Program-made: the position numbers and the translations under genes
Notes under the pieces: generated by a model
Seen by the model: only the letters and a program-made list of their open reading frames with translations
Databases searched by the model: none
What the model was told of the DNA's origin: nothing
Part shown: piece after piece, positions 2,632 through 53,295 of the stretch
How the letters are laid out: every line of letters begins with the position of its first letter
Position numbering within the stretch: the stretch's first letter is position 1
Origin: a bacterium
GTDB taxonomy: Bacteria > Vulcanimicrobiota > Vulcanimicrobiia > Vulcanimicrobiales > SCRA01
Direction of reading: 5' to 3'
Length of the DNA stretch: 55,998 nt
Assembly (NCBI GenBank): GCA_004298665.1
Contig: SCQY01000092.1
Span: 1-55,998 of the forward strand

Positions 2632-3330
2632 CTATAGCTCGAGCCCCAGCTCACGCGCTGTAGCCTGGAGCGTGACGTCGTCGCGAGTGATCCTCTTGAT
2701 TAAGATCGTGGCGCTACGCGCGCGGAGCCGGTCTGCGAAGATCGCGTAGGATGTACGCGGCCCGTGCGTGGAGAGCACCTGGATGCCCTCCCAGCGGCGG
2801 CCGAGGACGACTTCGCGCATCAGGATGGCAGTGGCGGTCTGCGGAATCTCGACGCCGGCACCGAGGAGGTCGCCGATGGTGAGATGCGGTCGGGAGGCGG
2901 TCGCGAGCAGGCGCGCGATGCGCGGGTGCGAGCCAAGGGTTTCGAGCACGCGTGTTTGGAGGATCGCGAGCAGAGCCAGAGGTGTCGTCACCGTCGCGTG
3001 GACCAAGACGCATTCGTAGATGTCCGGGCGCACGCGCCGCGGACGCCGGGCGATCTCGAGTTCTCGCGCCTCGAGGTCTGTGAGGTGCTCATCGTCGATC
3101 ACCGGTTCCTTGGAGTATGGCTCGCCGGCCGCCGGGTAGCTCGTGGAGCGGAGTTTCTCGAGCATGCACGTTGCCGGATCCGGCGCACCGTAGACGACGC
3201 CAAACTCGCGGTCGGCGTCATCGAAGCGGCCGCCGCTCGGTCCGCCTTGGAACTGGACGGGGACGTAGAGAGGGTCGGCCTCGCGGCCGACCCTCCAGAA
3301 CTCGCTGATGTGGGACCCAATGGCGTCCAT
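2632..3330 (-). CDS. RES-domain toxin (NAD+-degrading family)
   Basis: FWRV, GGRFD, YGA...CMLE and VLST motifs give the R-E-S triad; ATG overlaps the stop of the upstream antitoxin. Confidence 0.75.
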   Translation of the reverse strand: MDAIGSHISEFWRVGREADPLYVPVQFQGGPSGGRFDDADREFGVVYGAPDPATCMLEKLRSTSYPAAGEPYSKEPVIDDEHLTDLEARELEIARRPRRVRPDIYECVLVHATVTTPLALLAILQTRVLETLGSHPRIARLLATASRPHLTIGDLLGAGVEIPQTATAILMREVVLGRRWEGIQVLSTHGPRTSYAIFADRLRARSATILIKRITRDDVTLQATARELGLEL

Positions 3331-3791
3331 CACTGGATAATGTCCGCTTTCATCGCGGCGATGACGTCGCGCAGCCGGCTGTCGGCGAGGGCATCGAGCG
3401 GCATGCCGTAGTCGAACCGCGCACTCGCTCCCGTGAGCCATTGCTCGGCGGCCGTATCGCTGCCGAAGTAGCGACGCATCGTTTCGTACACGCAGTAGCC
3501 CTCGCGAATCCGCTGGAGCGTCTGCGCGTGCGGTGCCGCCCGGCCGGTGATCCACCGCGATACCGTGCTCGGATCGCTCGTATGCGTGAGGCGCGCGACG
3601 CCTCTGCGTCCCAAGGCGTAGGCCAGCTTCCGAACGATCTCCGCTGGATCAACGATCTGCGTGATCTCCAAGCGGACGTCCTCGAAGACCCGATCAACGC
3701 TGAAGTGGTCCTGGACAGCACTAGCCGGCATATAAGCCTCCCGAAAAGCCTCTATTAACGTCACTATAGCCGCCGCTGCCTCCCCTGTCAA
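3330..3791 (-). CDS. Xre/MbcA/ParS-type antitoxin (HTH + toxin-binding domain)
   Basis: HTH STVSRWITG; AEQWL...F....PLDAL C-terminal motif; upstream of a RES gene; start may be ATG 3731. Confidence 0.75.
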   Translation of the reverse strand: MTGEAAAAIVTLIEAFREAYMPASAVQDHFSVDRVFEDVRLEITQIVDPAEIVRKLAYALGRRGVARLTHTSDPSTVSRWITGRAAPHAQTLQRIREGYCVYETMRRYFGSDTAAEQWLTGASARFDYGMPLDALADSRLRDVIAAMKADIIQ

Positions 3792-8965: not shown

Positions 8966-9733
8966 CTATGTTGCCGCGCGCCTGGTGCGTTTGGGCTTCG
9001 TCGGCGCGGGAAGTGCAGCCAACGAGCTCGTCGCGAGGTCGAAGTATCGCGCGTGGCACTCGATCTGCCCGTCACGGAAGAGCCGCCAAAGAAGATCCGT
9101 CGCGAGGGTTGCGACCATCTTGTTGACCATGAGATCCTGGCGCCGCAGTGCCTCGATCGCGCTACACGAGGGCGCATCGTCTTCGGCGATGGTTGTGTCC
9201 ATCAGCTCGGGGTGCAGTTCCGTCGCACACGGGAGGGCGTGCACCAGGGCCTGGTCGGGATGACGCGGTGTGCCGAGCACGACCTGGCCGGTGGTGAGGC
9301 TGTTACCGGTATCGAGCCACAGCTTCCAGCGATAGAATCCGCGACCGAACGCGAAGCTGTGTAGCTGCGCTCGGGCCGCCCGGGAGTCGACACAAGAAAT
9401 GACCAGGTCCCAGTTCTGCTTGGCCGGCGTTGCGGTGAAGCGCTTCGGCACGGCGCTCCACGCGAGAGAGCAGCCGAGGTTTATGCGATGGATGAGGACC
9501 TCTGCCTTGTTCCGGCCGAGATCGCTGCGCGTATAGCGCTGGCGGACGATGTTCGCCGGTGAAACGGTGTCGGGGTCGAAGGCCGTCACGTCCAGACCTC
9601 CAAAGCCGAGTGCCTGAAGGCCGAGATGGAGGTGGATTAGGTTGGAGACAAGCTCGCTACCTGTTCCACCTACGCCGACTACCGCAACCTGGAGCGCGTG
9701 GTGTCCGAGAAAGTCGCGCGCTAACGACCACAT
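8966..9733 (-). CDS. PRTRC system ThiF (E1-like) protein
   Basis: VVGVGGTGS, DPDTVSPANIVRQ, NKAEVL, ISCVDS, WLDTGN, PSCSAIEAL.RQDL.VNK motifs. Confidence 0.93.
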   Translation of the reverse strand: MWSLARDFLGHHALQVAVVGVGGTGSELVSNLIHLHLGLQALGFGGLDVTAFDPDTVSPANIVRQRYTRSDLGRNKAEVLIHRINLGCSLAWSAVPKRFTATPAKQNWDLVISCVDSRAARAQLHSFAFGRGFYRWKLWLDTGNSLTTGQVVLGTPRHPDQALVHALPCATELHPELMDTTIAEDDAPSCSAIEALRRQDLMVNKMVATLATDLLWRLFRDGQIECHARYFDLATSSLAALPAPTKPKRTRRAAT

Positions 9734-10416
9734 AGAGCCTTCTCCACGGTGAGGTCGGTAGGCATGAGCCAGGCGGGATCGAAGGTGCCGGCGGCGACGG
9801 CCGCGGTGAGCAGCTCTGCGTACGTCCCGGAACGGCGCCAGCACTTCGTCGCCGACAAGTGAGTGAAGTTCGAGCTGAAGAACGCGGCCGTCCATTTCCC
9901 CGTGTCCGAAGGCTCGATGCTTTTCGGGAGGACCATGGATCCCAGGCAGACATCGTTATTTGCGAAGACGTTCCAGTAAGGCGCCTTGCAGAGCGGGGTT
10001 TCGAGCGTCGGCCGCTCGTCACGTGACAGTGCGTAGACCGAGAGCCCGCCGCTGCGGGCAATGAAGAGCAGTGGCGGCTGCGGGACAGGTTTGGAGTCGA
10101 ATGCCGCGACCGCATGGTCCGTCGAGGGCTTGAAGAACATCGTTCGCGTTGCCGCCGGCTCGTACCACACGATCGCGCTGTGGCTCGTGGCCACGACGTT
10201 CGCGGGCACGTAGGTAAGCGGGCCGCGCTGGAACAGGCTGAGTAAGCCTTCCACGAACCCTTGCGTCACGAACGTTCCAGCGCCTAGGCGTGCGCCGGCG
10301 CGCTCGACGATAACGGGGTGCTGCACGGCGATCGCCGTACGGTCCGCACCGTAGAGGAGGATGGCGGTGTGCAAGGCATGGCGATTCGCCTCGCTCTCCT
10401 GGAGTGAAATATTCAC
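9721..10416 (-). CDS. PRTRC system protein B (prokaryotic E2 family D)
   Basis: PQPPLLF, RPTLETPL.KAPYWNV...VCLGS, FFSSNFTH motifs; adjacent to ThiF. Confidence 0.9.
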   Translation of the reverse strand: MNISLQESEANRHALHTAILLYGADRTAIAVQHPVIVERAGARLGAGTFVTQGFVEGLLSLFQRGPLTYVPANVVATSHSAIVWYEPAATRTMFFKPSTDHAVAAFDSKPVPQPPLLFIARSGGLSVYALSRDERPTLETPLCKAPYWNVFANNDVCLGSMVLPKSIEPSDTGKWTAAFFSSNFTHLSATKCWRRSGTYAELLTAAVAAGTFDPAWLMPTDLTVEKALCGR

Positions 10417-10420
10417 GCGC

Positions 10421-10708
10421 CTAGTCCCCGCAAGGAGTCGCGATGAGGACGTACTCGCGACCGGCGATTGCGGTGGTACATACAGGGAAGCCGCCGTCGC
10501 CGACGTTCAGGTCGAGTGCTTGATCGTGCTCGGGATCGACGATGCGCTGCTCCTCACCGTTCGTAACGGCAACGGCCTCGAGGTGCATCGGCGTCCCGTT
10601 GATCTCAATATCCGTGAGCAGGCGGCATCGCGTGTCATGCGCGTCGTGGTATGCTCCGGTCGGCTTCCAGGCGCCGCGCGGAATCGTGATCGATGGGTGT
10701 TCGGGCAT
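10421..10708 (-). CDS. Hypothetical protein inserted in the PRTRC cassette
   Basis: GGAGG RBS before ATG 10708; INGTPMHLEAVAV...IAGREYVLIATP. Confidence 0.6.
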   Translation of the reverse strand: MPEHPSITIPRGAWKPTGAYHDAHDTRCRLLTDIEINGTPMHLEAVAVTNGEEQRIVDPEHDQALDLNVGDGGFPVCTTAIAGREYVLIATPCGD

Positions 10709-10768
10709 CGTGTCCTCCAGGGTACGGTTCGGCAGAGCGCGACGAGGCGTGTGTCGCAAGTTGGCCCG

Positions 10769-11830
10769 TTAGTTCGGATCGTCGGAGATCGCTTCGATGA
10801 TGCGGGCGATGGCATCGCTCGCCTGGGCAAAGGCAGTGACGGCGTGGTCGAAACGCGTGCAGTCAGCTTCTGTCAGTAGCATCATGTAGCTCGGCCCAAA
10901 GCCAGAGTCTCCTGCGACCTGTTGCCAGAGCTCTTCGACGGTCTCCATGACGAGTTGGGGTTTGTCGCCGCCACTGGTCTCGACTATCAAGGCGGGGTAC
11001 GGGAGGGCATCGTCACACCCCCTCGCATCGAGATCACGGGTAGTCAATAGAGCTGAGAGCGAATCGCGTGCGTGATAGAGGTCGCGTAGCGCGCGGACCA
11101 TCGTTGTGCTGCTCCGCCGCAGCTGCCGCGGGAGCTTCGAGAGACGCTTTTCACAGGCATTGAGGCTAAGGAGTCCGCCGCGCATGACGCTTCGGTGGTG
11201 GGTGCCGACTCGGCGCGCGAATGCCTCTGGCGTCAGAATGTGGTTGTCGCGCACATACTTGCGAAGCTGCGCCTCCGATACATCCTCAGGTGTACACCCG
11301 AGTTCTCCCGCAACCTCGTCGCGCGTGAACCATCGCCACTCCTCGGGATCGCCGTGAAAGTGAACCCAGTCGGCAGCGTCGATCGCCGTACTCGGCGTAA
11401 AGGCTTCGAAGGTGTAGCGGCTTGACAGCGACAGGTGGTGAAAGAGGCTGGCGGCAAGGCGCTTGTCTATTGCTGTAAGCTGGTCGTGAAAGACGCTTGC
11501 AACGATGGTATTGGGGCCCTCCCCTTCGGCCATGACGGTCACAACGTTGGCGTCCGTGGCGGCCATATATGGGTGGTCCTGAGGGTCTTCTGCTGGACCG
11601 ATCAGGGAGATATCCATCCGGACGTCGGCATGTTGTGCCGCGTAAGCGCTTAGCGAGCGAGTAAGATACGTGAGCGTAGAGTCGCTAGGCTTCGGGGGAA
11701 GTGCGGGGAAAACGCCGGCGTCCAAAAGAGCTGCGTAAATTGCCTCTCGAGCGGGCGAGATCGGTGACCCGATACGCACCTCTGTTGGCACACCGTCGAG
11801 GGCCAACTGCGGGCCCTCGAGTATCGACAT
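10769..11830 (-). CDS. PRTRC system protein F-like
   Basis: Position between C and B; FTP...W.HFHGD.EEW segment; start uncertain (11830 or 11983). Confidence 0.6.
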   Translation of the reverse strand: MSILEGPQLALDGVPTEVRIGSPISPAREAIYAALLDAGVFPALPPKPSDSTLTYLTRSLSAYAAQHADVRMDISLIGPAEDPQDHPYMAATDANVVTVMAEGEGPNTIVASVFHDQLTAIDKRLAASLFHHLSLSSRYTFEAFTPSTAIDAADWVHFHGDPEEWRWFTRDEVAGELGCTPEDVSEAQLRKYVRDNHILTPEAFARRVGTHHRSVMRGGLLSLNACEKRLSKLPRQLRRSSTTMVRALRDLYHARDSLSALLTTRDLDARGCDDALPYPALIVETSGGDKPQLVMETVEELWQQVAGDSGFGPSYMMLLTEADCTRFDHAVTAFAQASDAIARIIEAISDDPN

Positions 11831-11995
11831 CTCTAGGGGAGCAGCGGGACGATCTCCCAGGGCAGGCGCTCGTCGGCGTCTGGGGTGAGAGTCGCGAGCG
11901 CCGTGCCGGTCCGAAGACTGTCCGCCGTCTCTTCGCGACTGGCGATCTGCGAACGCTCCACCTCGAGCTGCTCGTGTAGCCACGTGCTTGGCGGC

Positions 11996-12199
11996 CTACC
12001 CTTTGGTGCCGAGGCGGGTGCGCACGGTATACGTGGCTTTGCCATGTTCATTCTCCGGGCCCTCGACAACGGCGGTTGCGAGGGCAGGGATGGTGGCCGC
12101 GTGCATGCGCACCACGTCCTCGATGCTCGCCGCCGGGTTGAGATCGGCGAGAACGCGATCGTCGTAGCGGATGATCCGTGTGGGTGTCGTGATCTTCAT
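11996..12199 (-). CDS. PRTRC system protein C (ubiquitin-like)
   Basis: LADLNP..SIEDV...A..IPALATAVVEGP...GTKG C-terminus. Confidence 0.88.
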   Translation of the reverse strand: MKITTPTRIIRYDDRVLADLNPAASIEDVVRMHAATIPALATAVVEGPENEHGKATYTVRTRLGTKG

Positions 12200-12208
12200 C
12201 GCTACCCC

Positions 12209-13021
12209 CTAGGAGATTCCGAGCGTCAGTGCGCTCTGCTTCAGCGTGACGTCGATCGTCGTCGGCGTCGAGCCCACTGTTACGACCTCTGTATGCGTAT
12301 CGTGATATTCCTTGGCGACGGAGATCGTGTATTTGCCCACCGGCAGTATCGACTGTTTGCGAATGTCGACAGGGTAGGTCTTGCCAGCAGCGTCTGTAAC
12401 CACGAGGGTGGCGTCCTTCTGATCCACGTTCACCCGGAGACGGCCCGTCTTCGGCTTGGGCTTGTAGGCCTCGGCGCGTCTAGCAGCGTCGTCTTTGGCC
12501 TTGGCGGCAGCCTGGGCGGTCTGCTGAGCGATCGCCTCGGCCGTGGCGATCGAGAGCGTTCGCGCGGGGACGTACTGTGCGAGTGCACTTACCAAGTTGG
12601 CGTCGATCTCGGCGGGGGAACCGGCAACTTGAAGGGGGATCGCCGCGGCGTGCGATTCCTTCTCGGCGGGGGTAGGCTGGATGGTGACGAGGATCTCCTG
12701 ATCGCTGAGTTTGGCGATGGCCAGGAGGAGCGTTCCTTTGACGGCGAGCGAAGCGGCTAGGCCTTGAATGATCCCAGAAAGCACGATCGGCTGCGGCGTC
12801 TCGACGGACGAGGGCGTGGCATCGGTGTCACCTTCGTCGTGTTCCGCCGGAGACTCGGCAGTATCGCTTTCATCGTCGTCGTCGTCATTGTCCGCCGGCG
12901 TGGAGTCAGCGGTGGTGCTCTCGTCGACGCCGTCTCCGAGGTCGCCGGCGAGAGCCTCGTGCTCGTCGGTTTCTTCGTTGGTCGCGGCTTCCGATGTGGC
13001 GGTGGGCGCGGGACTACTCAA
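12209..13021 (-). CDS. PRTRC system protein E with an acidic N-terminal extension and a C-terminal PEGA-like domain
   Basis: VTIQP...IPLQVAGSPAEIDANLVSAL core; D/E-rich first ~75 aa; GRLRVNV...LPVGKYTISVAKE..D C-terminal domain. Confidence 0.75.
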   Translation of the reverse strand: MSSPAPTATSEAATNEETDEHEALAGDLGDGVDESTTADSTPADNDDDDDESDTAESPAEHDEGDTDATPSSVETPQPIVLSGIIQGLAASLAVKGTLLLAIAKLSDQEILVTIQPTPAEKESHAAAIPLQVAGSPAEIDANLVSALAQYVPARTLSIATAEAIAQQTAQAAAKAKDDAARRAEAYKPKPKTGRLRVNVDQKDATLVVTDAAGKTYPVDIRKQSILPVGKYTISVAKEYHDTHTEVVTVGSTPTTIDVTLKQSALTLGIS

Positions 13022-15153: not shown

Positions 15154-15633
15154 TTACTGATCTTCCGGGCGCAGATATGCACGATTCACCGGGCCGCGGC
15201 CGCGGAAGATGATGAGGGTGACGTAGCCCTTGGCGTCTTCCTCCGACTCGACGATCTCTCTCGGGTCCGTCGGGCTCGCACCTCGCGAGTACTTGATCAG
15301 CTCAGGCATCTTCTTGCCGGTCGTCTGTGCTGCGAGGTGACGCTTCTTCCAGAAGTACCCCCGGCACCACAAACCCTCGTCATCACCGACCGTGGCGTGC
15401 GTTGCCCCGATCAGGGACCAATCGAAGCGATCGTGCTCAGCCAGGGGACGTCTGATGCCGCCTCGCGGGATCTCGCCGCACACGTATCCCCGCTTCCCCA
15501 AGAGGCGCTTAGTTTGGAGGAGCTCTTGGAGTCCCACGGTTGTCACGATCGTTCCACCAAGGGGATCGGTGAACGTGACGGTCACGGGGATCTGGCTGAG
15601 ATCGGCCTTTGGCGTGGAAACAGTTGCGGTCAT
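15154..15633 (-). CDS. ddrB: DdrB-family single-stranded DNA-binding/annealing protein
   Basis: GEIPRGG, FDWSLIGA, IKYSRGA..TDP and YVTLIIFRG motifs, collinear with Deinococcus DdrB as recalled; AGGAGGGA RBS before ATG 15633. Confidence 0.88.
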   Translation of the reverse strand: MTATVSTPKADLSQIPVTVTFTDPLGGTIVTTVGLQELLQTKRLLGKRGYVCGEIPRGGIRRPLAEHDRFDWSLIGATHATVGDDEGLWCRGYFWKKRHLAAQTTGKKMPELIKYSRGASPTDPREIVESEEDAKGYVTLIIFRGRGPVNRAYLRPEDQ

Positions 15634-15919
15634 AGTCCCTCCTGAGCAGGTGTAGGTGGAGTATGCTCCTGCGCTCGGCCACACGGGTGGCACAGTACGC
15701 CGGCATCGACGTGTATAATGGCTCGACGCGAGCGCGTTGCGCACGCATTCACGCTAGGTGCTGTGAACGATAGGCCTCCGATCGGTCAACCATTCCGCGT
15801 ATCCGCGCCACAGTGATCGCGCGTGGGTGCATCCGCTCTCGGATGGGGAGGAGTTCCTGCGCACTCTGTGCGAGCCGGCGCGAGGAAGATACTCGTTCGA
15901 TGGGCATCGTTATGGACCA

Positions 15920-17551
15920 TCACGCGATGCTTCGCGCGCCGTTGCCCACGCATGCGCTGTTCACGAGGGCCTGGATACGTTTACTGAAGCTCTCGACGAA
16001 GTTCTTGTCGAGCCGGACGACGGGGTGGCCGTAGAGTATCTCGTGGCGGAACGATGCCGGAACAACGGGGATCAAAGGAACGCCGGCGGCGATAGAGTCA
16101 CTTGCCATCACGTATCCATCGGTAAGGAACACGACGATACGCGGTGCTGGCAGCTCGTGGAGCCGTGCAAGCGCTGCGCCCAAGCTGGCGTCAGGTTCGC
16201 TGCCGCCGTCCGGGATGAAGCGTGCTAGGGCTTTCCCCGTCGTCTTCGGCGTCCAGGGCGTGACGGTTGGATGGTTAATCGTCGTGATTGCGCACCTGCC
16301 GTCTGTAGCGAAGGCGACCGTACTCAGTGCGAGCGCAAGGAGGCGGATCGCGTCAATCTCGCGCAAATCCGGGTGCGCGAAGTCGATGCCCGGGTTGAAT
16401 GAGGCTTCAGAGGGCGCAGCCATGGAGCCAGAATCGTCGACGAGGAAGCAGAGTGAGAGCCGTGTTCCGCGGGGCTTGTACTGTGAGCGCACGAAACAGT
16501 CATCGCTGCCGTGTGCTACTGCCCGCGTAAGGCGCGTTGGATCAATGCGCCCGCGTCGCTGGTTGCGACGCCGAACCCGGATCGAGCGTGAAACGCCCAG
16601 AATTCTCGAGACGGCCTGCGTAAATGCGGCTATCGTCGGCTGCAGCAGCTGTCGCTCGAGCTCCAGGTTCGCTGCGATGTCGTCGTCGTAGCGCAGTTCC
16701 TCTGAGGGAACCGTCGTCCCGACGATCGGATCGATGGAGCCGGCGCCGCCCTCGGTAGAGTCGTGGTGGAGTTCGGACTCCTTTCCGGGATCCGATTGCT
16801 CGTCGCTCGCTCCGTCTACCGGGGAGGACGCCGTCGGTGTGGTAGCCGGTGTGTCATGCTCCGTTCCATCCGCGTCCTCTGATGGGGCAGACGGGAGGGA
16901 GGGGACCGGAATGATGGCTGGGTTATTTTGGACAGGAGGAAGCCAGTGCGCCAGCAGCGGCAGGATCTCTCGGAGGATGGCCCAGCGGTCGACGCGCGTG
17001 GTCGCCACCTGAAGGGGTGACACGAGTGCGAGGAAGGCAGCGTCAACGTGCGGCCCGATGGGGTTTGCCAGCGTGCCATAGAGGCGGATGGCGAGGTCGC
17101 CGTCAACCGCGTAGGATCGCCACCCTTCGCCGAATGGCGGGTAGTACCCGAGCTTAAGGGCATGGGGGCTACGCGCGCGCAGCGCAGCCTCGGCGACGCC
17201 GTGTTCTGCATGCCAGAAGAGACGCACGATTTCCTCGGGCGTAAAGACGCCGCTGGCGCGAACGGCCTCTCGTGTCAACCTGGGAGGCGCCGTTTCCGCG
17301 AGGAGGCTCCCAAGTCTAGTGAACAACGAGGCCAGCCGGCGTTGGGCGGCGATACCTCGCGAGGGCGGCCCGATGTCGATGAGTGGGTTCTCATCACGTA
17401 GCCAGACCGAGAGCGCGCGCTCGGGGTATGTGACGATCCGCGCAACAGGGTCACCGCTCCATGTACGCGCGGGGACGAAGGTCACGCCCGTGTCGCGTGC
17501 GGCGATCGCGACCGTCGCGCGCAGCGCGGCGAGGCTAAGCAGCTTTGCCAT
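15920..17551 (-). CDS. VWA (MIDAS) domain protein, CobT/NorD-like partner of a MoxR ATPase
   Basis: RRGRIDPTRL, FLVDDSGSM (DxSxS), GGS, VFLTDG; acidic linker. Confidence 0.85.
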   Translation of the reverse strand: MAKLLSLAALRATVAIAARDTGVTFVPARTWSGDPVARIVTYPERALSVWLRDENPLIDIGPPSRGIAAQRRLASLFTRLGSLLAETAPPRLTREAVRASGVFTPEEIVRLFWHAEHGVAEAALRARSPHALKLGYYPPFGEGWRSYAVDGDLAIRLYGTLANPIGPHVDAAFLALVSPLQVATTRVDRWAILREILPLLAHWLPPVQNNPAIIPVPSLPSAPSEDADGTEHDTPATTPTASSPVDGASDEQSDPGKESELHHDSTEGGAGSIDPIVGTTVPSEELRYDDDIAANLELERQLLQPTIAAFTQAVSRILGVSRSIRVRRRNQRRGRIDPTRLTRAVAHGSDDCFVRSQYKPRGTRLSLCFLVDDSGSMAAPSEASFNPGIDFAHPDLREIDAIRLLALALSTVAFATDGRCAITTINHPTVTPWTPKTTGKALARFIPDGGSEPDASLGAALARLHELPAPRIVVFLTDGYVMASDSIAAGVPLIPVVPASFRHEILYGHPVVRLDKNFVESFSKRIQALVNSACVGNGARSIA

Positions 17552-18395
17552 GGCGACTGCGATCGTATTGCACAGTGAGCATCTGCTCGGCTTCTGCGTC
17601 GAAGGTTGGAAGAAGATGCCGAGCGGCGACGGCGATGTTCTCGCGAATCGTCAGGCCAAGCGCTCGAGCCGCGGGCTCGTCGATGCCCTGGTCCTGAAGA
17701 TAGGCTGTGAGCGTACACGCACGGTCGATTTCACGTAGCGAGACAACGACGGGGGAGTCGCTCGTGTTGAGCGCGACGCTCAGGCGGCCAGCAAGGGTCA
17801 CGAAGTCGGCGAGGATTTCGGGCGATAGCGACGGATGGCGTGCGCTGAAGTGGGCGAGCTGCTCCTCGTCGGTCATGCCAGGCCACGCGATCGGTTGGAA
17901 GCGCGAGTAGAATGCCGGCGAGAGCCGGTAGTTGCCGCCATAACCGTCGAGGTTCGTGGTGGCGACGAATTGGAAACCGGGTGCGGGGTGGAGCAGCTTG
18001 AAGCCAGCGCTCTTAATCACGATTGGCTCGCAGTTCGCGATCGGGTGCCAGAGGTGAGCTACATCCGCGGGGGATGTCGTGATCTCGTTCACGACCAGGC
18101 GTAGGCCTTCGCGGTAAGCACGCGTGATGGGCCCCTCACGGTGGACGAAGCGGGCGTTCTCGTTGTGAACCACCTCGCCGTAGAGCGGGTTCTCTTCCGT
18201 CTCCGGCGTCATCGAGATCGAGATGACCCCGTTTGGATGCGCATCAGCGTTCTCGCCGGCGAGCTCAGGGAGCGTTCGGTCGCCGACGGTTTTGATGCGC
18301 GTAGCGCTGTAGGTTTTTCCCGCGCCCGAGGGCCCGTAGAGAAGGACGGGGGCCTGGGCGTTCAGCCAGAAAGCGAGTTGCTCGAGTGGAGTCAC
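17535..18395 (-). CDS. MoxR/CbbQ-NorQ-like AAA+ ATPase
   Basis: GPSGAGKT Walker A, EGPITRA, VVNEI Walker B variant, FQFVATTN, AFYSRF, SLRE. Confidence 0.9.
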   Translation of the reverse strand: MTPLEQLAFWLNAQAPVLLYGPSGAGKTYSATRIKTVGDRTLPELAGENADAHPNGVISISMTPETEENPLYGEVVHNENARFVHREGPITRAYREGLRLVVNEITTSPADVAHLWHPIANCEPIVIKSAGFKLLHPAPGFQFVATTNLDGYGGNYRLSPAFYSRFQPIAWPGMTDEEQLAHFSARHPSLSPEILADFVTLAGRLSVALNTSDSPVVVSLREIDRACTLTAYLQDQGIDEPAARALGLTIRENIAVAARHLLPTFDAEAEQMLTVQYDRSRHGKAA

Positions 18396-22549: not shown

Positions 22550-23689
22550 TTAGTTGAGGACATCGCGCGTCGGTTCGTACGCGCACGGAACGATAATGCC
22601 GGTTTGCGCAAAATCGTTCGTGTGGCCTGACGGCATGTGGAGCCGTAGGCCGTGTCCCGCGCGTGGATCCCAGGCAAACTCGAACCCGATGCTTAGCGGA
22701 GCCAACCACGCCTCCAGCACCGTGCGGTGTTGAAGTATCCTCGCCTCTGCTTGATCTTCATCCGTGGTGCCGTTACACCGGTCCTCGGCGAGTCGATGTA
22801 GGGCGAGCGAGATGGCTTCCAGTTCGTCGACAAGCGCGGCAGTTGCGCCAGGGACAGCCGTAAGCTCCGCGAGGAGGGCCTGATGGTACGTGTAGCCGTT
22901 GCGGAGGCGGAAACTAAGAGACCCAACGGTCGTGGTCGCGAAGGCCCGGTCTGGGGTACGCCACAGCAGCGCATCGGCCTGGTGTAGCCAGCGCCCGATG
23001 TGCGCGTTTGTCGGGCCGTGCGGCGCGATACCGACGAGTGCGCCGCCGGCGCGCAAGAGCAGTCGGACATGCCGGATATGCTCCAAGGCCTCAGAGAACG
23101 GTGGATTCATCAAGGCGCCGTCATACGCTGTCCCCGTGTGCGAGAAGATCGACTCCTCGACGACGCGCACGCGCTCGTCGCCGGCGAACCGCCGCAGGAG
23201 GCTCTTTGCACGACGTGGATCAACCTCGACGGCGGTGACTTGCGCGTGTGGTATCAGCTCGAGGATCGCACCGACCATGGCGCCATCGCCGGCTGATGGC
23301 TCAAGGATGCGTGGAGCGGCCATCCATCCGATCTCATTGGCCAGGTCTTGCGCCAGCTCGTGCGCGTAGGATGCGCCGGTAGGGAAGAACTCGAGCGTCG
23401 CGATCGTATCGGCATAGAAGCCGGTCGTGACCGCCTCGACGATCGCAGCTTTGGCATCCGCGGGCGCGACATGCCGCCTGCGTTTGCGGTTCCACGTGAC
23501 GCCGATGGCGTCAAAGAAGTCGTCGATCTCGCGGTAAAGCGTCGGCGACACGCGCGGTAACAGCGCTTCGTCGCTGGCGTACGAGATTGAGCCCAAGGCC
23601 GCGCGTGCCTCGGGAGAGAGCGAGACACGCGTTGGGGAGCCATCCGACGACACACTATCGTCAAGCGAAAATAACGGGAGAACGCTCAT
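22550..23689 (-). CDS. N6-adenine (class I SAM) DNA methyltransferase-like protein with an extra C-terminal domain
   Basis: FFPT, ILEPSAGDG (motif I), AVEVD, MNPPF (motif IV); GGAGG RBS. Confidence 0.88.
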   Translation of the reverse strand: MSVLPLFSLDDSVSSDGSPTRVSLSPEARAALGSISYASDEALLPRVSPTLYREIDDFFDAIGVTWNRKRRRHVAPADAKAAIVEAVTTGFYADTIATLEFFPTGASYAHELAQDLANEIGWMAAPRILEPSAGDGAMVGAILELIPHAQVTAVEVDPRRAKSLLRRFAGDERVRVVEESIFSHTGTAYDGALMNPPFSEALEHIRHVRLLLRAGGALVGIAPHGPTNAHIGRWLHQADALLWRTPDRAFATTTVGSLSFRLRNGYTYHQALLAELTAVPGATAALVDELEAISLALHRLAEDRCNGTTDEDQAEARILQHRTVLEAWLAPLSIGFEFAWDPRAGHGLRLHMPSGHTNDFAQTGIIVPCAYEPTRDVLN

Positions 23690-24532: not shown

Positions 24533-24534
24533 CG

Positions 24535-25584: not shown

Positions 25585-26295
25585 TTATGAGACAGCCTCC
25601 CCCTCTAATCTCCCCTCCCCAGCCGGTTTCGATGCCCGCGCCAGCAGCAGTTGGAGCAGGGGGAGGTCGGTAGCTAGCGCATGCCGGCGGTGGACCTTCT
25701 CGTAGAATGCACCCCACAGCTCGCTTTTTGCTTGATCGGGTAGCTCGTTGATCCGTGCGAGGATACCGCGCATAGCCTCGCCGCCGGCGGCTGCCTGCGC
25801 CGACGAGGTGGCGCCGGCCGGGGAGAGTGTGGAGCCCTGTGAAGCACGCTTACCATCGTCGTCGTCGCGTTGAGCGGCGGTCCCAGTGAGGGCGAGCAGG
25901 GCGTAGCGGCGGCCATACGTTTCAAGCGAACCGACTGACTGGGCGGCAATCGACTGCGATACGAGCGTCAGGGTCGACCCGATATACTCGGCACTCTCGT
26001 GGATCAGCAGCGTCTCCACCTCGACCGTGAATAGCCCGTCCTCGAGACGCGAGCTCGTGGGTTGCGCGATGAAGATGCCTTCCTCGTTGAGTGCTCCGCG
26101 CACAACGGCGAGGACGCTGGCGAGATCGGCGTACTGTGAGTCAAAGTCGGGGTTGACGCTGTTGGTACCGATGGGTCCCATGCGCCGCTGCGCACGCACG
26201 AGTGCCGGAACTAATGCCGCCACGCTGGGTGAGCTGTAGAGATTGCGTGTTAGGATTGCGCCAGGCGCATCGCTAGCGTTAGGTGTAGCTGACAT
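25585..26295 (-). CDS. ERF-family ssDNA-annealing protein
   Basis: NPDFDSQYADLASVL, LLIHESAEY, QSVGSLETYGRRYALLAL.G...DDDDG. Confidence 0.92.
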   Translation of the reverse strand: MSATPNASDAPGAILTRNLYSSPSVAALVPALVRAQRRMGPIGTNSVNPDFDSQYADLASVLAVVRGALNEEGIFIAQPTSSRLEDGLFTVEVETLLIHESAEYIGSTLTLVSQSIAAQSVGSLETYGRRYALLALTGTAAQRDDDDGKRASQGSTLSPAGATSSAQAAAGGEAMRGILARINELPDQAKSELWGAFYEKVHRRHALATDLPLLQLLLARASKPAGEGRLEGEAVS

Positions 26296-30930: not shown

Positions 30931-31824
30931 GTGGTGATCATACCAACCCCTCAGCCGATCTCTCTCCACTCCCCGGCGCCAATCGCAACCCCAAGACCGG
31001 CGATCGCGACGCCCGCGCCGAGCCATCCGCAAAGTGGCGACGTGTACGTCGATGGGCAGGGCGTGGTTCGTACGATCTACTACGCCGGTGGTTCCATCGT
31101 GGTGAGCTGTGCGCCCAGCTCTACCTGTCGCGTTGAACTTCCGGCGGGCTCGGCCGTGAGCGGGGTTCTCAATCCTACGCCGGCGTGGCACGTGACGCCG
31201 GATAACGACGGGGCCACCCCCATGGTACTCGTCGTCCCCGATCCTGGGGCGCCCGATGCGGGGATCGTCGTGCAATCCAAGGCGCGGAGCTTCGCGATGA
31301 GGCTCCACCTTGATCCCGCTGCCGTGAACGCGACTTACGGGTATCTCTTTCCCGACCATGGTCGGGTGGTGCTCCCCAGCGCGAAGCCCGTGGAAGTAAC
31401 ATCCGAGGATGACCAGGCGAGTGCGGAGCCTTTCCAGGCGCCGATCGCGCCGGCGCCATGTCCCAGCGGCTACGCGATGACCTCGCAAGGCGATCCACCA
31501 TTTTGGCCTCGGCGCGTCTGGATCGCGAATGATGGCGTATCGATCGCGTTCTCGGCCAACGGCGTCATCCCCGTCGCCGCCGTTCCCCTCAGTGGCGCGC
31601 CGCTTCGCTCGCCGGTTGACTTGAGCCGCCTAGCGATGATCTCGCAGGCCGGGGAAATTGACGGCCAAGATCGCGTCGTACACGTGCTCGACTGCTATCC
31701 CACGATTGTGCTGTACCTCGGCTTTGGCAGGGATCGTCGCGCGGTGGTCCTACAGGCTCGTGCGGGAGGTACCCCTCAAGCCACGTCGTCTTCGCCAGCC
31801 AACCGCGACCAGGCCCAGCAATGA
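30931..31824 (+). CDS. virB9: VirB9/TrbG-like T4SS outer-membrane core protein
   Basis: VSCAP...RVELPAG, YAM..GDPPFWPRRVW..DG; lies between VirB8 and VirB10. Confidence 0.7.
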   Translation: MVIIPTPQPISLHSPAPIATPRPAIATPAPSHPQSGDVYVDGQGVVRTIYYAGGSIVVSCAPSSTCRVELPAGSAVSGVLNPTPAWHVTPDNDGATPMVLVVPDPGAPDAGIVVQSKARSFAMRLHLDPAAVNATYGYLFPDHGRVVLPSAKPVEVTSEDDQASAEPFQAPIAPAPCPSGYAMTSQGDPPFWPRRVWIANDGVSIAFSANGVIPVAAVPLSGAPLRSPVDLSRLAMISQAGEIDGQDRVVHVLDCYPTIVLYLGFGRDRRAVVLQARAGGTPQATSSSPANRDQAQQ

Positions 31825-33161
31825 GCGTTTCGACGCAACCAGGAGGGCCTCTTCAGCCGAAACTTTCCTGGCGCGGCCGGCTGGCGCGCACAGCGGTGAC
31901 GGGCGTCGTCGCGCTGGTAGTGCTCGCGCTCTTCTTTCACGTGGATCTCCTCGGCTGGTCCGGGATACACCTGTGGCACGCGGTACACCCAACGCCGACT
32001 GTCAGCCCGATTGCATCACCCTCTGCCAACAGTGATGGTCTCCTGGGTGCGGCGATAGCAGAGATCACCGGGCAACCCGTCCATCCGACTCGGACACCTA
32101 CTCCGCAGGTTGCAGCGCCTGCGGCCGCCGCCCCCGGTGTATCCGGGGCTGCGGGGCGAGCCGGTCTATTGACTCCTGAGCAGCAACGCGAACTGGCCGA
32201 GTCCAATCGAGTCATTAGCCAGGTGAACGGCTCCCCGGTGGACGCGAACCCATTTAGCAACCTCGGGAAAGACATCGCATACCGGGAAACCGCTCCGACT
32301 GCGCAGCCAGCGCCACCGCCGGCCCCTGCGCCGACATCACCTCCGGTGCCCGCGCTCGTGACGCCTTCCCCCCTCACGTCGATGGGCCCGCTCCTTTCGA
32401 ATCCGTCGGCCCCGTCCATGGTCGGGACCGTGCCAGGACAGCAGAGCGGAGCACTTCCCGTGTCGATAGCTCAACTCGATCGGGCTGATGAGGCGTCGTT
32501 TGTCCAAACAACACAAACGGTATCGCCGTATACCAGCGCGGAAGTATCGCCAGCGCGCTCGCCAAACGAGATCTGGCCGAGCGACGGGATCGATTGCACC
32601 CTCAAGAATGCGATCTATTCAGATCTCCCAGGGATAGCGATTGGTCTTATCGCGAAGGACGTGAAGAGCCATCTTCCGCCCCACAACATTCTGATTCCGG
32701 CGACCAGTGAGGTCTGGGGTCCGTATAACGCGCTGGTTGGGCAAGGTCAGGACGCGATGCAGATTCGCTGGGATGTGCTAGCCTACCCCAATGGCGCGAC
32801 TTTGCCGCTTCAGAGTGTGCAAGCTACGGACGCGCGTGGGCGTGCTGGCATTCCCGCGGATGTGAACAACCACGTCGGTCGCGTGTACACCAGCACACTG
32901 ATCGGCACGATCCTTTCGGTGGCTGGCGGCATTGCGGCCGCACGCGCTGAAACGGTCGGTACGCCGTCTGTCGGGCAGCTCTTTGGCGTGAGCGCAAACA
33001 ACGCAGTGCAGCAGCAAGCCTCGCAACGGATGAGCGCCGCACAAAGCATTCCGCCAACGCTTATGGTGCACGGCGGTACACCGTGCCACCTACAGTTTGC
33101 CGCAATTCAGATGCTACCGACCTACAGCGAGGTTGTACGCAGCTACGGGGCTAGCCGATGA
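31821..33161 (+). CDS. virB10: VirB10/TrbI T4SS core protein
   Basis: TM + Pro-rich linker; IYSDLPG, ILIPA...G.Y, RW....PNG, DARGRAGIPADVNNH, IPPTL. Confidence 0.9.
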   Translation: MSVSTQPGGPLQPKLSWRGRLARTAVTGVVALVVLALFFHVDLLGWSGIHLWHAVHPTPTVSPIASPSANSDGLLGAAIAEITGQPVHPTRTPTPQVAAPAAAAPGVSGAAGRAGLLTPEQQRELAESNRVISQVNGSPVDANPFSNLGKDIAYRETAPTAQPAPPPAPAPTSPPVPALVTPSPLTSMGPLLSNPSAPSMVGTVPGQQSGALPVSIAQLDRADEASFVQTTQTVSPYTSAEVSPARSPNEIWPSDGIDCTLKNAIYSDLPGIAIGLIAKDVKSHLPPHNILIPATSEVWGPYNALVGQGQDAMQIRWDVLAYPNGATLPLQSVQATDARGRAGIPADVNNHVGRVYTSTLIGTILSVAGGIAAARAETVGTPSVGQLFGVSANNAVQQQASQRMSAAQSIPPTLMVHGGTPCHLQFAAIQMLPTYSEVVRSYGASR

Positions 33162-33841
33162 TTTCACAGGCGGTGCTCGCCGGCGCGCTGTGGATCTTTG
33201 GGGTGTGCGCGCCCTCTGCGCCGCCGGCGCTGCTCGCCGGCATCGCGATGCAAGAGAGTGGCTTCGATCCGGACGCGATCAACGACGATACCATGCACAA
33301 ATCATACTACCCAGGGTCACCGAATGCCGCTGTGGACTTATCTGTGGCGTTGCAAGCGCACGGAGACCAGATCGACGTCGGCCTGCTCGGGATCGACTAT
33401 ACCGACTGGCAACGGCACGGCGTGCCATTGGTAGCCGCGTTCGATGAATGCACGAACGCACACGTGTCCGCAGAGATATTGATGGGCGACTACGCAAGTG
33501 CGACAGCCACAGGGTATCGCGGCGAGACGGCGTGGGTGGCAGCGCTCTCGCTCTACAACGCCGGTCGCATCACCCCACGCGGTCTCGCCTATGCGCGCTC
33601 GGTGCTTGCAAACACGCAGATGTTGTGGCCGCGGATCCAACTTGCTATGCGCCGGCCCACTGCGTCAGCCGCCTCCGCGCTGATAGCCCAGCAAGCCCCC
33701 GCTCCGACGAGCACTCCAGCCCCCTCCCTCACAGAGGCGGTACGTATTGCTCGCGAGCGCCAAACCCAAGCGTCACGCGCCTATGCAGCGATCGAGCGCG
33801 CCGTCCAAGCGCGTACGAAGGCGCAAAGAGGAGCCCCATGA
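33158..33841 (+). CDS. virB1: VirB1-like lytic transglycosylase
   Basis: CAP, QESGFDPDAIN, IDVGLLGI, AFDECTN, AALSLYNAG. Confidence 0.88.
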   Translation: MISQAVLAGALWIFGVCAPSAPPALLAGIAMQESGFDPDAINDDTMHKSYYPGSPNAAVDLSVALQAHGDQIDVGLLGIDYTDWQRHGVPLVAAFDECTNAHVSAEILMGDYASATATGYRGETAWVAALSLYNAGRITPRGLAYARSVLANTQMLWPRIQLAMRRPTASAASALIAQQAPAPTSTPAPSLTEAVRIARERQTQASRAYAAIERAVQARTKAQRGAP

Positions 33842-35328
33842 CCGTACCCGAGCAAGCACTTCCGGCTGCCTCGGCAGACGTCTCGCTAGCGCCCGAAGCC
33901 ATGCGTCGGGCGCTCGGCCGCATCGGGCTTGGCGCGGCATTACGCGAACGGATCATTCCGATCTCGCTCGCGCGCGGGCGTCTCACGATTGGCGTTGATG
34001 GCGATACCAAAAAAGCCATCGCGTGGGCACGCGTACATGCTGGATTACGCGACATTGTCGCAGTTCCACTGGCTACTGCGCAAGTAAGCGCAACGTTACG
34101 CGAGCTGCGCGCTGCGAACGCTTCGCCGCCGCTTAGCCGTGCCGAGGAGCAGATCGCGCGCGCGGTCACAACCGTAGCGATCGGCGGCGGCAGTGATCTC
34201 TTTGCGCTGCCTGACCAGACCGGTGTTCGACTCATTGCGAAGATCAACGGCGCAGCGCGTGAGATCAGCCGAATGGACAGCGCGACGTATGAGCAGTCCC
34301 TGATCGCAGGGTCCGTATCGGGTCACCTCGGTGGTACGGCGCACCTACGCGAGTCACAGAGTTGCGGCTATCAGATCGACTACGACGCTGTACGCGTTTC
34401 TTGCCGCCTTCGCACGTACCCGCGAACGATCCGGATCGGTACGGAAACGAAAATCGTCCCGGCACTGGACTTCCGTATCCACCCGGACCAGGACGATCTC
34501 CCGCGTCCAGACGAGCTCGGTATCCGTGCCGAGGCGATAGCGGCATTACGCCGGGTACTGGCCGAGGAACGGCTTCCAGTCTTAGTAAGCGGGGAGCCCG
34601 GTGTCGGCAAAACGACAACTCTTTTTTCCATTCTGCGGGAGATTGCTAAGGTCTGGCCGTTCATCTACACGTTCGAGGCACCCATTGAGATGGTCGTCGA
34701 CGAGCTCATCCAGCGCGAAGTTCCGACAATCTCAGATGCCATCCCCGACCGTGAAGCCCTGTTACAGATGAACCCGGATATCGTGTTCATCGGTGAAGCG
34801 CTCGGCCGCGGCTCCTTTGCACCGTTGCTTGATTTTATCGAGACCAATGTGCCAAGCGTGACGACGCTTCACGAGCGCACCGCTCTAGGCGCGCTCTACC
34901 GGGCAGTCCAGCTCGGTGGCGATCGCTACCTCACGAAGGCCAGGCTCATATGGTGCCAAGCGCTCATCGCGCCGGTCTGCCACAACTGCGGTACGCAAGG
35001 CTCACCGAGCGCGGCAGTGGAGTATCGGTTTAAGCTCCACGAGACGCCGCCCCCAACCACGACGTGGCGGCGAACAGTGGGGGCCGACTGCGCCTATTGT
35101 CAGGGGCTCGGGGTGACTGGTCCTCGTCGTCCACTGGTGGAGTTCTTCCACGTCAATGCCGGGGTCCGCGAGGTAGTCCGCGGTGGAGCATGGAACCCGG
35201 GAGCGCTGCGCAAGCTCGTCTACCCCTCCCCAGAGGGGATGACCATTGCCGGATCCGGGGCAGAAGCGCTCCGCGCAGGGGAGATCGACGAAACCGAGTT
35301 CCTTAGGCTCGGAGACGACCTGGTGTAG
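33838..35328 (+). CDS. pilB: PilB/GspE-family assembly ATPase
   Basis: SGEPGVGKTTTL Walker A, EAPIE, NPDIVFIGE Walker B, TTLH, CHNC...CAYC zinc motif. Confidence 0.85.
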   Translation: MTVPEQALPAASADVSLAPEAMRRALGRIGLGAALRERIIPISLARGRLTIGVDGDTKKAIAWARVHAGLRDIVAVPLATAQVSATLRELRAANASPPLSRAEEQIARAVTTVAIGGGSDLFALPDQTGVRLIAKINGAAREISRMDSATYEQSLIAGSVSGHLGGTAHLRESQSCGYQIDYDAVRVSCRLRTYPRTIRIGTETKIVPALDFRIHPDQDDLPRPDELGIRAEAIAALRRVLAEERLPVLVSGEPGVGKTTTLFSILREIAKVWPFIYTFEAPIEMVVDELIQREVPTISDAIPDREALLQMNPDIVFIGEALGRGSFAPLLDFIETNVPSVTTLHERTALGALYRAVQLGGDRYLTKARLIWCQALIAPVCHNCGTQGSPSAAVEYRFKLHETPPPTTTWRRTVGADCAYCQGLGVTGPRRPLVEFFHVNAGVREVVRGGAWNPGALRKLVYPSPEGMTIAGSGAEALRAGEIDETEFLRLGDDLV

Positions 35329-37685: not shown

Positions 37686-37688
37686 GAC

Positions 37689-38219
37689 ATGCTAACGCTT
37701 GACCTAGCGATCTACCTGATGGCCATCATACTGCTCTTTAGCTCCACCGGGGGAGCAATCCCCGACGCAATTTCTGAGGTGCAACTGACGCGTGAAGTTA
37801 CCGAGCTGACGAACCTCGGGAATGGCTACGCCAGTCTGTGTAACCATACGAACTTTGTCTGCACAGATGTCTCGAGTGGCCAGCCACTAGCTTCCGGCGC
37901 CGCTCCAATCGAGGCCGGCTTCGTCTCGACCGTACCGACTCCGCCGGTCGGCGCCGGGGCGAAGTACGACATCGTGGTGACTGCGCTTTCGAGCAACTCC
38001 GCGGACAACGCTGTGGTGCCTTACAGCTCGGCGCAAATCGATGGCAGCCACATCCAGAACCTCGAGGCCTATACGGTGACCGCAAACGGCACGGCACCGC
38101 CGACAGTGGCGGATGACGGGACACCCAAGAGTGGGACGCTCTACACCCTAGCGTACGACTCATGCCTGAATGGCGTCATCGCCACCACCGCTACGACTCC
38201 GACGTCGTCATGCTCGTAG
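37689..38219 (+). CDS. Type IV pilin-like protein
   Basis: N-terminal hydrophobic helix (MLTLDLAIYLMAIILLF...IP), amphipathic alpha1-C, two Cys pairs. Confidence 0.6.
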   Translation: MLTLDLAIYLMAIILLFSSTGGAIPDAISEVQLTREVTELTNLGNGYASLCNHTNFVCTDVSSGQPLASGAAPIEAGFVSTVPTPPVGAGAKYDIVVTALSSNSADNAVVPYSSAQIDGSHIQNLEAYTVTANGTAPPTVADDGTPKSGTLYTLAYDSCLNGVIATTATTPTSSCS

Positions 38220-41221: not shown

Positions 41222-41271
41222 GATCCACCGGTTCGACTCGAGGAGTCCCACCAACCCACAAAGGACGTATA

Positions 41272-53050: not shown

Positions 53051-53106
53051 CCTGCCATTAGGGTAGCACGAACAGGCGTTCGCGTCACCACTAGGGAGAA
53101 GGGAGT

Positions 53107-53295
53107 CATAACGCACCCGCGTTCACCCCCCCACCCCCCCGATCCGGCGTTCCTACGCTCGTCGCACCTACCCTATCCGCGCTGACTTGCCCCGGCGAGC
53201 TCCTGCGCGCGCGCACCCGCATAGGCATAAGCGTAGTGCAGCTGCGGAAGCAAGAACGGTGGACAAGGGTTGGGGGGAAACGCTCCCGCGTTATG
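53107..53295. promoter_or_regulatory. Two AACGC-N4-GCGTT palindromes between the divergent recombinase and SRAP genes
   Basis: AACGCACCCGCGTT 53110-53123; AACGCTCCCGCGTT 53279-53292. Confidence 0.55.

Follow-up and report, generated by a model that had tools for sequence, protein, structure and literature searches.

A tail-less DdrB-family gene, very probably from outside Deinococcus, in the probable leading region of a conjugative or mobilisable element

The gene at positions 15154-15633 on the minus strand of contig C52 encodes what is almost certainly a DdrB-family protein in a short, tail-less form. It lies, probably, in the first-transferred part of a conjugative or mobilisable element whose host is very probably not Deinococcus, and the protein may help to establish the incoming single strand in a recipient cell. 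The window, i.e. the whole stretch of 55,998 nucleotides analysed here, is the entire contig C52 of a 3.16-Mb, 362-contig bin (G000) that is 90% complete.

The reading frame of the gene comprises 159 codons and is stop-free. Its translation holds the four motifs named in the initial annotation in the order given there, with GEIPRGG at residues 53-59, FDWSLIGA at 70-77, IKYSRGASPTDP at 113-124 and YVTLIIFRG at 137-145, an order which, judged from the sequence, is far beyond chance. PF12747 (DdrB) is the single Pfam family matched by the protein (E 7e-27, 94.3 bits with a cut-off of 25), residues 19-145 covering profile positions 2-131 of 132. With phmmer, two distinct sequences of the PDB were matched, both of them DdrB: 4exw_A (9.6e-23) and 4hqb_A (4hqb/4noe, 6.2e-21). 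NCBIfam and PHROGs contain no family model matching the protein. The structure predicted by AlphaFold2 (AF2) with 67 homologues has a mean predicted local distance difference test (pLDDT) score of 95 and a predicted template modelling (TM) score of 0.85. Foldseek matched this model at E <= 0.001 to 15 structures, each of them a DdrB chain, and the E value of the following match is 0.6; the best match is 4noe_E (E 1.2e-14, root-mean-square deviation 2.1 A, about 36% identity), with a TM of 0.79 when normalised to the length of the query and 0.88 when normalised to that of the target. The protein ends 14 residues past the Pfam domain, so that the long C-terminal tail is absent, as had been noticed at the outset. 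The homology first recognised from the motifs is thus borne out by profile, PDB and fold comparison, and we have next to no doubt that this is a genuine DdrB-family protein.

Passages of PMC3834827 describe for DdrB of Deinococcus radiodurans that alanine changes at R64, W66, R83, R85, K94, K102, K108, R132 and K135 lower the binding of single-stranded DNA (ssDNA), and that mutation of W66 raises the dissociation constant from 3.6 to 51 uM. These contacts were mapped through the HMMER alignment from the PDB search, in which the numbering of the chain is four ahead of that in PMC3834827. Four of the nine residues are identical in the window protein (R85=R98, K94=K107, K102=K114, R132=R144) and one is replaced conservatively (R83 by K96). 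In the 67-row homologue alignment the column of R85 is invariant (67/67) and that of K102 holds K in 56 of the 67 rows; the R64 column has R in 40/67, and the W66 column is aromatic in only 31/67. Judged from these columns, the 'top surface' residues are family-wide and the channel residues are confined to part of the DdrB family; the channel residues are missing in the window protein and in its nearest relative. Four copies of the protein modelled together by ESMFold2 scored 0.59 against 0.16 for the best control, with runs agreeing in at least 75% of contacts and a partner pLDDT of at least 72. Among proteins of solved structure, the mark was reached by 20 of 30 that form pairs of one chain, as compared with one of 23 that are single chains. 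A solved DdrB pentamer already exists, and the score of the window protein may therefore reflect the model's memory of that ring. By analogy with its solved relatives, the protein would be a non-OB, ring-forming protein that binds and anneals ssDNA.

All called open reading frames (ORFs) from position 3 to about 29670, an array of about 30 kb, lie on the minus strand. In the order of transcription the array consists of a primase-like ORF (weak PHROG match), the ERF gene, a nucleotide phosphatase (phrog_318, E 7e-58), a methyltransferase-like gene, a Strawberry-notch (Sno)-like helicase, an AAA_5 ATPase, a vWA-like gene and the DdrB gene, followed by small cysteine-rich ORFs, a PRTRC cassette, two RES genes, the first with an Xre-type antitoxin, and the SSB gene (Table 1). 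Contig C266 overlaps C52 exactly over 120 nt: its first 120 nt, reverse-complemented, equal the start of C52, and the overlap falls within the end of the SSB gene. Followed in the sense of transcription of the array, C266 adds three unnamed ORFs, a NikA-like gene (34.6 bits), a MobA/VirD2-type relaxase of 963 aa (24.7 bits, cut-off 24.6; LPD7 at 27.7 bits, just over cut-off), an S26 peptidase and another RES gene; NikA, relaxase and peptidase are co-directional with the C52 array. No overlapping contig was found for the right end of C52 or the far end of C266. Divergent from the array are genes for a VirB9-like protein (PF03524, E 1.9e-7, 31.5 bits and below the cut-off of 34.2), VirB10/TrbI (PF03743, E 1.9e-31) and a VirB11-type ATPase (PF00437, E 1.9e-22).

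In conjugation the transferred strand (T-strand) enters 5' first from nic and templates only genes that point back toward nic. From this template constraint it follows by mechanism that leading-region genes should share their orientation with the relaxase operon beyond the origin of transfer (oriT). According to Samuel et al. 2024 (PMC11541004), every anti-defence, methylase, SSB and toxin-antitoxin gene within the 300 commonest leading-region families is in T-strand orientation, and the C52 array has one orientation and contains SSB, methylase and toxin-antitoxin genes. Its content and geometry are probably those of a conjugative leading region, with the DdrB gene in the first-transferred part. 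The initial annotation had placed the gene on a mobile element, and this is upheld by VirB9/10/11, PRTRC, ERF, integrase and toxin-antitoxin pairs on the window together with NikA and relaxase on the overlapping contig; we hold with high confidence that the element is conjugative or mobilisable.

Table 1. Positions of the DdrB-family gene and of other features on the window (contig C52)
Feature	Position	Strand	Evidence
DdrB-family gene, tail-less form, 159 aa	15154..15633	(-)	PF12747, PDB DdrB matches, AF2/Foldseek
Shine-Dalgarno AGGAGGG	15637..15643	(-)	upstream of ATG at 15633, read from sequence
Intergenic stretch upstream of DdrB gene, 286 nt	15634..15919	(-)	folded; scanned for promoter
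vWA-like protein, 543 aa, directly upstream of DdrB gene	15920..17551	(-)	PF05762 VWA_CoxE E 7e-4, below cut-off
AAA_5 (MoxR/dynein-type) ATPase, overlaps vWA gene start	17535..18395	(-)	PF07728 E 3.5e-13
Strawberry-notch-like helicase, 1158 aa	19233..22709	(-)	PF13872 E 6e-25, PF13871 E 3.4e-18
Methyltransferase-like protein, upstream of helicase	22550..23689	(-)	PF05175, PF08242, weak, below cut-off
ERF-family single-strand annealing protein	25585..26295	(-)	PF04404 E 7.9e-19
PRTRC cassette	8966..13021	(-)	TIGRFAM profile scores
PRTRC parts: ThiF; PRTRC_B/E2; two unnamed ORFs; PRTRC_C; PRTRC_E	8966-9895; 9721-10416; (two unnamed ORFs); 11996-12199; 12209-13021		
Second RES gene	6082-6615	(-)	RES domain
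RES toxin and Xre-type antitoxin pair	2632..3791	(-)	PF08808, PF13560, PF09722
Single-OB SSB, 141 aa, DDEIPF tip, final array gene on C52	3..428	(-)	PF00436 E 3.8e-33, 1-104/104
VirB9-like, VirB10/TrbI, VirB11-type ATPase, divergent from array	30931..35328	(+)	PF03524, PF03743, PF00437
Pilus-type genes: T2SSE ATPase, T2SSF-like platform protein, secretin	35328..42747	(+)	PF00437, PF00482 (weak), PF00263 E 1.9e-27
Tyrosine recombinase/integrase	52007..53116	(-)	PF00589 E 1.1e-8

DdrB is a small family: among 1.84 billion cluster representatives (50% identity clusters), searched exhaustively with phmmer, 116 proteins match at E <= 0.001, 89 of them at E <= 1e-10, the best with 55% identity. Among 72,556 plasmid records 11 match, with 32-47% identity, and all of them are from Deinococcota (Deinococcus 9, Allomeiothermus 1, Oceanithermus 1). 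Plasmid pOCEPR01 of Oceanithermus profundus is typed as conjugative (MPF_T, MOBC) and carries its DdrB homologue near vWA-like, AAA and RES-Xre genes; the copy on pMESIL01 of Allomeiothermus silvanus adjoins a transposase-type integrase, and one Deinococcus plasmid copy lies amid methylases and an HNH endonuclease. RefSeq labels these plasmid copies only as 'single-stranded DNA-binding protein'. A pattern scan of genome contigs with the single window protein delivered no relative. Motif scans used a 10-row alignment, the 67-row alignment being too diverse for a pattern scan, and detect only copies that keep two motifs. With one genome per species they gave 49 loci, titled Deinococcus, Deinococcaceae or Deinococcales in 45 cases, 'uncultured bacterium' in two, and belonging to Gemmatimonadota metagenome-assembled genomes (MAGs) in two; five loci were obtained from IMG/VR viral contigs and 35 from metagenomes. 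In the phylum of the Gemmatimonadota carrier the family was found in one of 401 genomes sampled, the carrier itself.

Phylogenetic analysis was based on 203 sequences, with the long multi-domain weak hits P0114 and P0117, rows of less than 120 aa and four rows with short domain coverage removed. Merging of identical rows gave a quick tree of 195 rows, and the careful tree comprises 105 of these, representing every cluster. The window protein groups with L223 and P0003 (98/90) inside a starred clade of 25 rows (99/94) which also includes the IMG/VR copies P0021 (= L220) and P0060 (= L221) as well as L252, and no Deinococcus-named row. Rows named Deinococcus fall into at least four other starred clades: 19 rows with chromosomal copies, e.g. 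of D. yunweiensis; 13 rows with the D. radiomollis and D. altitudinis chromosomes; five rows (L108, L119, L132, L106 and L115) that include the PRTRC-linked copies L108, L119 and L132, a further such copy, L130, being outside the careful tree; and, for the remaining rows, small clades of Deinococcales MAGs. The Gemmatimonadota homologues are placed in a different clade from the window protein. In approximately unbiased (AU) tests of two groups that were named after the tree was seen, union of the window protein with the 19-row clade (log-likelihood difference 64.5, p 0.013) and with the 13-row clade (77.6, p 0.0033) was rejected, and by these sequence comparisons the window protein is outside both chromosomal Deinococcus clades.

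Were the contig from a cell of Deinococcus or of another member of the Deinococcota, the gene would be one more plasmid ddrB paralogue. All 11 matching plasmid records and 45 of the 49 named genome loci are in keeping with such an origin, and the G+C content of 64% would fit. Opposed to it are the tetranucleotide composition of C52, whose correlation is 0.80-0.83 with chromosomal, PRTRC-linked and plasmid loci of Deinococcus and 0.980 with the rest of the bin, the AU tests and the 25-row clade free of Deinococcus names, and the rpoB marker gene of the bin, which is of Eremiobacterota type. A deinococcal origin is very improbable on this evidence. The earlier suggestion of a carrier outside Deinococcus agrees, as far as this can be told, with rpoB, tetranucleotide make-up, clade and AU tests, and we are firmly inclined to accept it.

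No 16S gene was found in the bin and a search for DnaA delivered fragments only. For the N-terminal 215 residues of rpoB (contig C230) 80 loci were kept, with identities of 82-88%, most of which are titled Vulcanimicrobiota, Eremiobacterota or member genera, and on this part of rpoB the bin is assigned to the phylum Eremiobacterota/Vulcanimicrobiota (WPS-2). The conserved core of rpoB was rejected as a phylum marker, as its identity of 58-77% across many phyla is uninformative. None of 40 close relatives (four of the same genus, 36 of the same order) gave a PF12747 match, and of 401 genomes sampled from the phylum one passes the cut-off, namely G000 itself; two fragments below the threshold reach 24 and 19.9 bits. 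The former (G340:C390:22-243, L276), from another Eremiobacterota genome, has two in-frame stops, lies at a contig end and may be a decayed copy.

Within the order a true PRTRC ThiF is shared by one further genome, G049 (245 bits); its contig C32 of 21 kb, a WPS-2 MAG record, holds the only named relative of the window ThiF gene. This contig carries PRTRC_E, PRTRC_C, a 404-aa ORF, PRTRC_B and ThiF in the same order as the window (31-64% identity, with 47-64% listed for the cassette) and a Sno-like helicase, and no DdrB gene. By binning, a host within the Eremiobacterota specifically is likely.

A DdrB encoded on a conjugative element would enter the recipient early, on genes readable from the transferred strand. 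The DdrB-type protein would then coat and protect the incoming single strand and/or anneal complementary strands, by which a double-stranded circle would be restored and the element be established as a stable double-stranded replicon. Such a role would be the conjugative counterpart of DdrB function in plasmid establishment during transformation of D. radiodurans: passages of PMC7314969 report that plasmid establishment in transformation is impaired without DdrB and attribute this to single-strand annealing. Both the early timing of expression and the role are argued by analogy, and we put the probability of an establishment role for the incoming strand at about 0.45-0.55.

Several observations weigh against this reading. 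Four of the nine ssDNA contacts are lost in the window protein (R64 to T78, W66 to A80, K108 to S120, K135 to G147). The leading-region geometry hangs on the 120-nt contig overlap, and in place of oriT/nic, which was not located, short inverted repeats only were seen. The check for a Frpo/ssi-type hairpin covered the 286-nt stretch upstream of the DdrB gene, where the ssDNA fold has a z value of -0.92 and 43 of 200 shuffles fold equally well or better; no sigma-70-like promoter was found in the same stretch. VirB4 was found only on contig C280 and a coupling protein only on C31 and C280; since this VirB4 belongs to a different secretion system, the element as assembled is incomplete, and the element itself may lack genes or be unable to transfer on its own. 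Since an SSB and an ERF annealase are already encoded on it, a third ssDNA protein may do something else. The host assignment is by binning only, VirB10 relatives in nine of 60 related genomes are only 26-30% identical and no help in placing the host, and C52 contains neither chromosomal flank nor tRNA gene.

These points on the host lead to the possibility that the contig is mis-binned and that the element resides in another member of the community, e.g. of the Gemmatimonadota, still not in Deinococcus. No chromosomal gene is present on C52 or C266, and C52 ranks 70th of 86 contigs by distance from the mean composition of the bin. Its tetranucleotide correlation with two Gemmatimonadota loci is 0.971, so that bin and Gemmatimonadota are not separated; none of the 400 other Eremiobacterota sampled reaches the PF12747 cut-off, and two Gemmatimonadota MAGs carry DdrB homologues. 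We nevertheless consider mis-binning unlikely: an independent WPS-2 MAG harbours the closest relative found for the PRTRC module, its genes in identical order; a paralogous element with the closest composition (C227, correlation 0.988), whose SSB and other genes are 42-50% identical, is in the same bin; and the Gemmatimonadota homologues belong to a different clade in a phylum where only one of 401 sampled genomes has the family.

C227 (59.7 kb) carries an SSB 50% identical to that of the window, a GGDEF protein, an integrase and a DnaA C-terminal-like fragment, together with homologues of the window ORFs 8276-8881, 23909-24541 and 53354-54034; no DdrB was found on it. Its SSB was considered as the chromosomal SSB of the bin and rejected, as it sits on the paralogous mobile element. 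C280 encodes a separate type IV secretion system (VirB4, VirB10, VirB11 and coupling protein) that is 24-33% identical to that of the window, the coupling protein of C31 scores 221 bits, and C346 (154 kb, G+C 0.61) has the most deviant composition in the bin.

Elsewhere, too, DdrB homologues lie on mobile DNA. Of 126 ORFs within about 6.5 kb of 13 homologues without Deinococcus names, two each are relaxase, TraI_middle, ParB HTH, ParB_N, RepB primase, DprA, YpsA, DUF4326 and Rce1-like, and one each is DNA methylase, SSB, DnaB, Mom, integrase, pol III beta, ResIII and Mrr. Large neighbours are SNF2 helicases (L218, L122), DnaB (L220, L221) and pol III beta with Mom (L252), and intein-containing class II ribonucleotide reductases follow directly downstream in L254 (10551-13766) and L238 (10579-13821). 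Inteins are also contained in the SNF2 helicase (L218 12232-18381) and the DnaB (L221 14178-16832) that adjoin other homologues, and the intein-bearing neighbours point to elements of a phage-like kind whose hosts have a high G+C content. Apart from its chromosomal copies in Deinococcus, the family is thus at home on plasmids and phage-like elements.

The DnaB, pol III beta, Mom and ribonucleotide reductase neighbours, the five homologues on IMG/VR viral contigs and the ERF and primase-like ORFs in the array of the window itself would all suit a general recombination or replication accessory of mobile elements, i.e. an alternative SSB or annealase without a special role at cell entry. The window gene, on the other side, is co-oriented with SSB, methylase and toxin-antitoxin genes and points to NikA and relaxase, and tblastn of 50,697 GenBank phage records with the window protein (P0001), P0060 or P0033 as query gave no match, nor did PHROGs, so that DdrB is not an established phage replication protein. 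A mere accessory function appears somewhat unlikely to us.

The protein could also be a partner of the vWA/AAA_5 pair or of the PRTRC E1/E2 cassette, or an anti-defence decoy hiding ssDNA from host sensors, rather than an annealase. The vWA-like protein is 49% identical to the ORF adjoining L223, the closest DdrB homologue, so that this neighbourhood is conserved, and vWA and AAA genes recur on the DdrB plasmid of Oceanithermus; loss of the W66 and R64 channel contacts could mean a changed binding mode. When the window proteins were compared with 89 homologue loci, PRTRC ThiF/E2 was found within 10 kb of DdrB paralogues in four, all from Deinococcus (L108, L119, L130, L132), which with the window makes two different DdrB clades; the SSB was found in two loci, the vWA neighbour in L223, and VirB11 and GGDEF in one each. 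The other 85 loci have no PRTRC genes within the stretch examined, the related PRTRC element of G049 is devoid of DdrB, and PRTRC is not known to have a function. We regard a partner or decoy function as quite improbable.

With the establishment role goes a wider view, which we hold as tentative and as falling short of even odds: that DdrB proteins are at root ssDNA-annealing and establishment proteins of mobile elements, carried from phylum to phylum by conjugative plasmids and phage-like elements, and that the radiation-repair DdrB of Deinococcus is a domesticated copy. The tree shows neither direction of transfer between mobile elements and Deinococcus, because it has no outgroup and its backbone is largely unresolved. 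A domesticated DdrB would parallel its regulators IrrE and DdrO, which passages of PMC8072749 describe as akin to the ImmA/ImmR pairs of conjugative transposons and phages.

Among the other genes of the window, the SSB matches PF00436 once and over its full length, confirming the single-OB form first described; the SSB of Deinococcus has two OB folds. In the PRTRC cassette ThiF (TIGR03736, 249 bits), B and E are above their cut-offs (TIGR03737 151 bits, TIGR03741 42.4) and PRTRC_C, with 45.7 bits for TIGR03738 and a cut-off of 45.95, is just short; a ParB-related protein and PRTRC A, D and F were not recognised among the 10 ORFs scanned. PRTRC systems are found on proteobacterial islands and plasmids. 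The methyltransferase-like gene overlaps the start of the Sno-like helicase gene; helicase-methylase pairs of this type are known from the anti-restriction regions that conjugative elements carry. C52 and C266 together have three RES-domain genes (including L275 11893-12567), one of them with a recognisable Xre/MbcA/ParS-type antitoxin. A 231-aa ORF at 665-1360 (-) has a sub-threshold match to PF07737 (anthrax lethal factor N/C-terminal domain; E 4.5e-4, 20.4 bits, cut-off 27.4); its homologues lie on contig C353 and in two places on G049:C32, and it possibly represents a peptidase domain of zincin-like type that mobile elements carry. On the plus-strand side a GGDEF protein gene follows the secretin gene, and the pilus-type cluster region (35328-47000) includes a 1055-aa ORF without Pfam match; together with NikA and relaxase the cluster has a putative resemblance to IncI-type plasmids, which possess a thin pilus. 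As a possible mark of element ends on C52, only a weak pair of 33-nt direct repeats was found, and no tRNA gene.

The findings suggest that a radiation-repair protein family apparently also travels on mobile DNA: a clear DdrB member is encoded in what is probably the region transferred first by a conjugative element of an uncultured phylum, and the family is scattered over plasmids and phage-like contigs, with one carrier among about 400 sampled genomes in each of two other phyla. This offers a testable origin story for a radiation-repair gene and would link the puzzling need for DdrB in plasmid transformation to a task that it has in nature, the establishment of single-stranded DNA arriving in a cell, making DdrB a candidate new class among the leading-region establishment proteins. 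If the domestication view is true, the plasmid-transformation role would be ancestral and radiation repair derived.

In the literature DdrB is called specific to Deinococcus or Deinococcaceae and treated as a hallmark of extreme radiation resistance (passages of PMC6300522, PMC7314969 and PMC8072749), and Table 4 of PMC6300522 lists additional copies in species of Deinococcus. The description 'Deinococcus-specific' in the initial annotation repeats what passages of PMC6300522 and PMC7314969 state and does not hold for databases, where the Pfam name 'DdrB-like protein' and the RefSeq annotations of Thermaceae plasmids already record members outside Deinococcus. A metagenome survey (PMC10140301) retrieved PF12747 matches, its passages being without taxonomy or element context. 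The 'DdrB-like' domains of Iyer et al. 2017 (PMC5512222) were set aside, as they concern phage P1 DdrB, an unrelated ParB-type domain. In the open-access full-text literature no paper was found that describes a DdrB homologue from a conjugative element or from another phylum, nor one discussing the Deinococcota plasmid paralogues.

With the chromosomal DdrB of D. radiodurans and D. geothermalis (4hqb, 4noe, 4exw) the window protein shares family, fold and the FDWSLIG, KYSRG and YVTL..FRG motifs, as well as the top-surface residues R85 and K102 and a predicted self-association. It differs in its length of 159 aa without tail (the 4exw chain has 184 aa), in the loss of W66, R64, K108 and K135, and in the location of its gene on a conjugative element, in a bin of another phylum and in a separate clade. 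The plasmid paralogues of the Deinococcota, those on Deinococcus megaplasmids included, are likewise short, tail-less and plasmid-borne, pOCEPR01 shares vWA, AAA ATPase and RES-Xre genes with the window, and the five-row Deinococcus clade also has PRTRC-linked copies; at 32-47% identity they nevertheless belong to other clades and are all confined to the phylum Deinococcota. ERF, Redbeta/RecT and Rad52-like Sak are ring-forming ssDNA annealers of phages and plasmids too, and an ERF gene lies 10 kb from the window DdrB gene, but their fold and family are unrelated, the best Foldseek match other than DdrB having an E value of 0.6. The gene resembles the leading-region establishment genes such as ssb, psiB and ardA (PMC11541004) in its probable position on the relaxase side, its orientation and its company of SSB, methylase and toxin-antitoxin genes; the main text of that paper mentions neither DdrB nor annealing, and no Frpo-like hairpin was found upstream of the window gene. 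While family and fold are known, new here is the combination of a tail-less DdrB without the W66 and R64 contacts, a probable conjugative leading region and a bin of another phylum.

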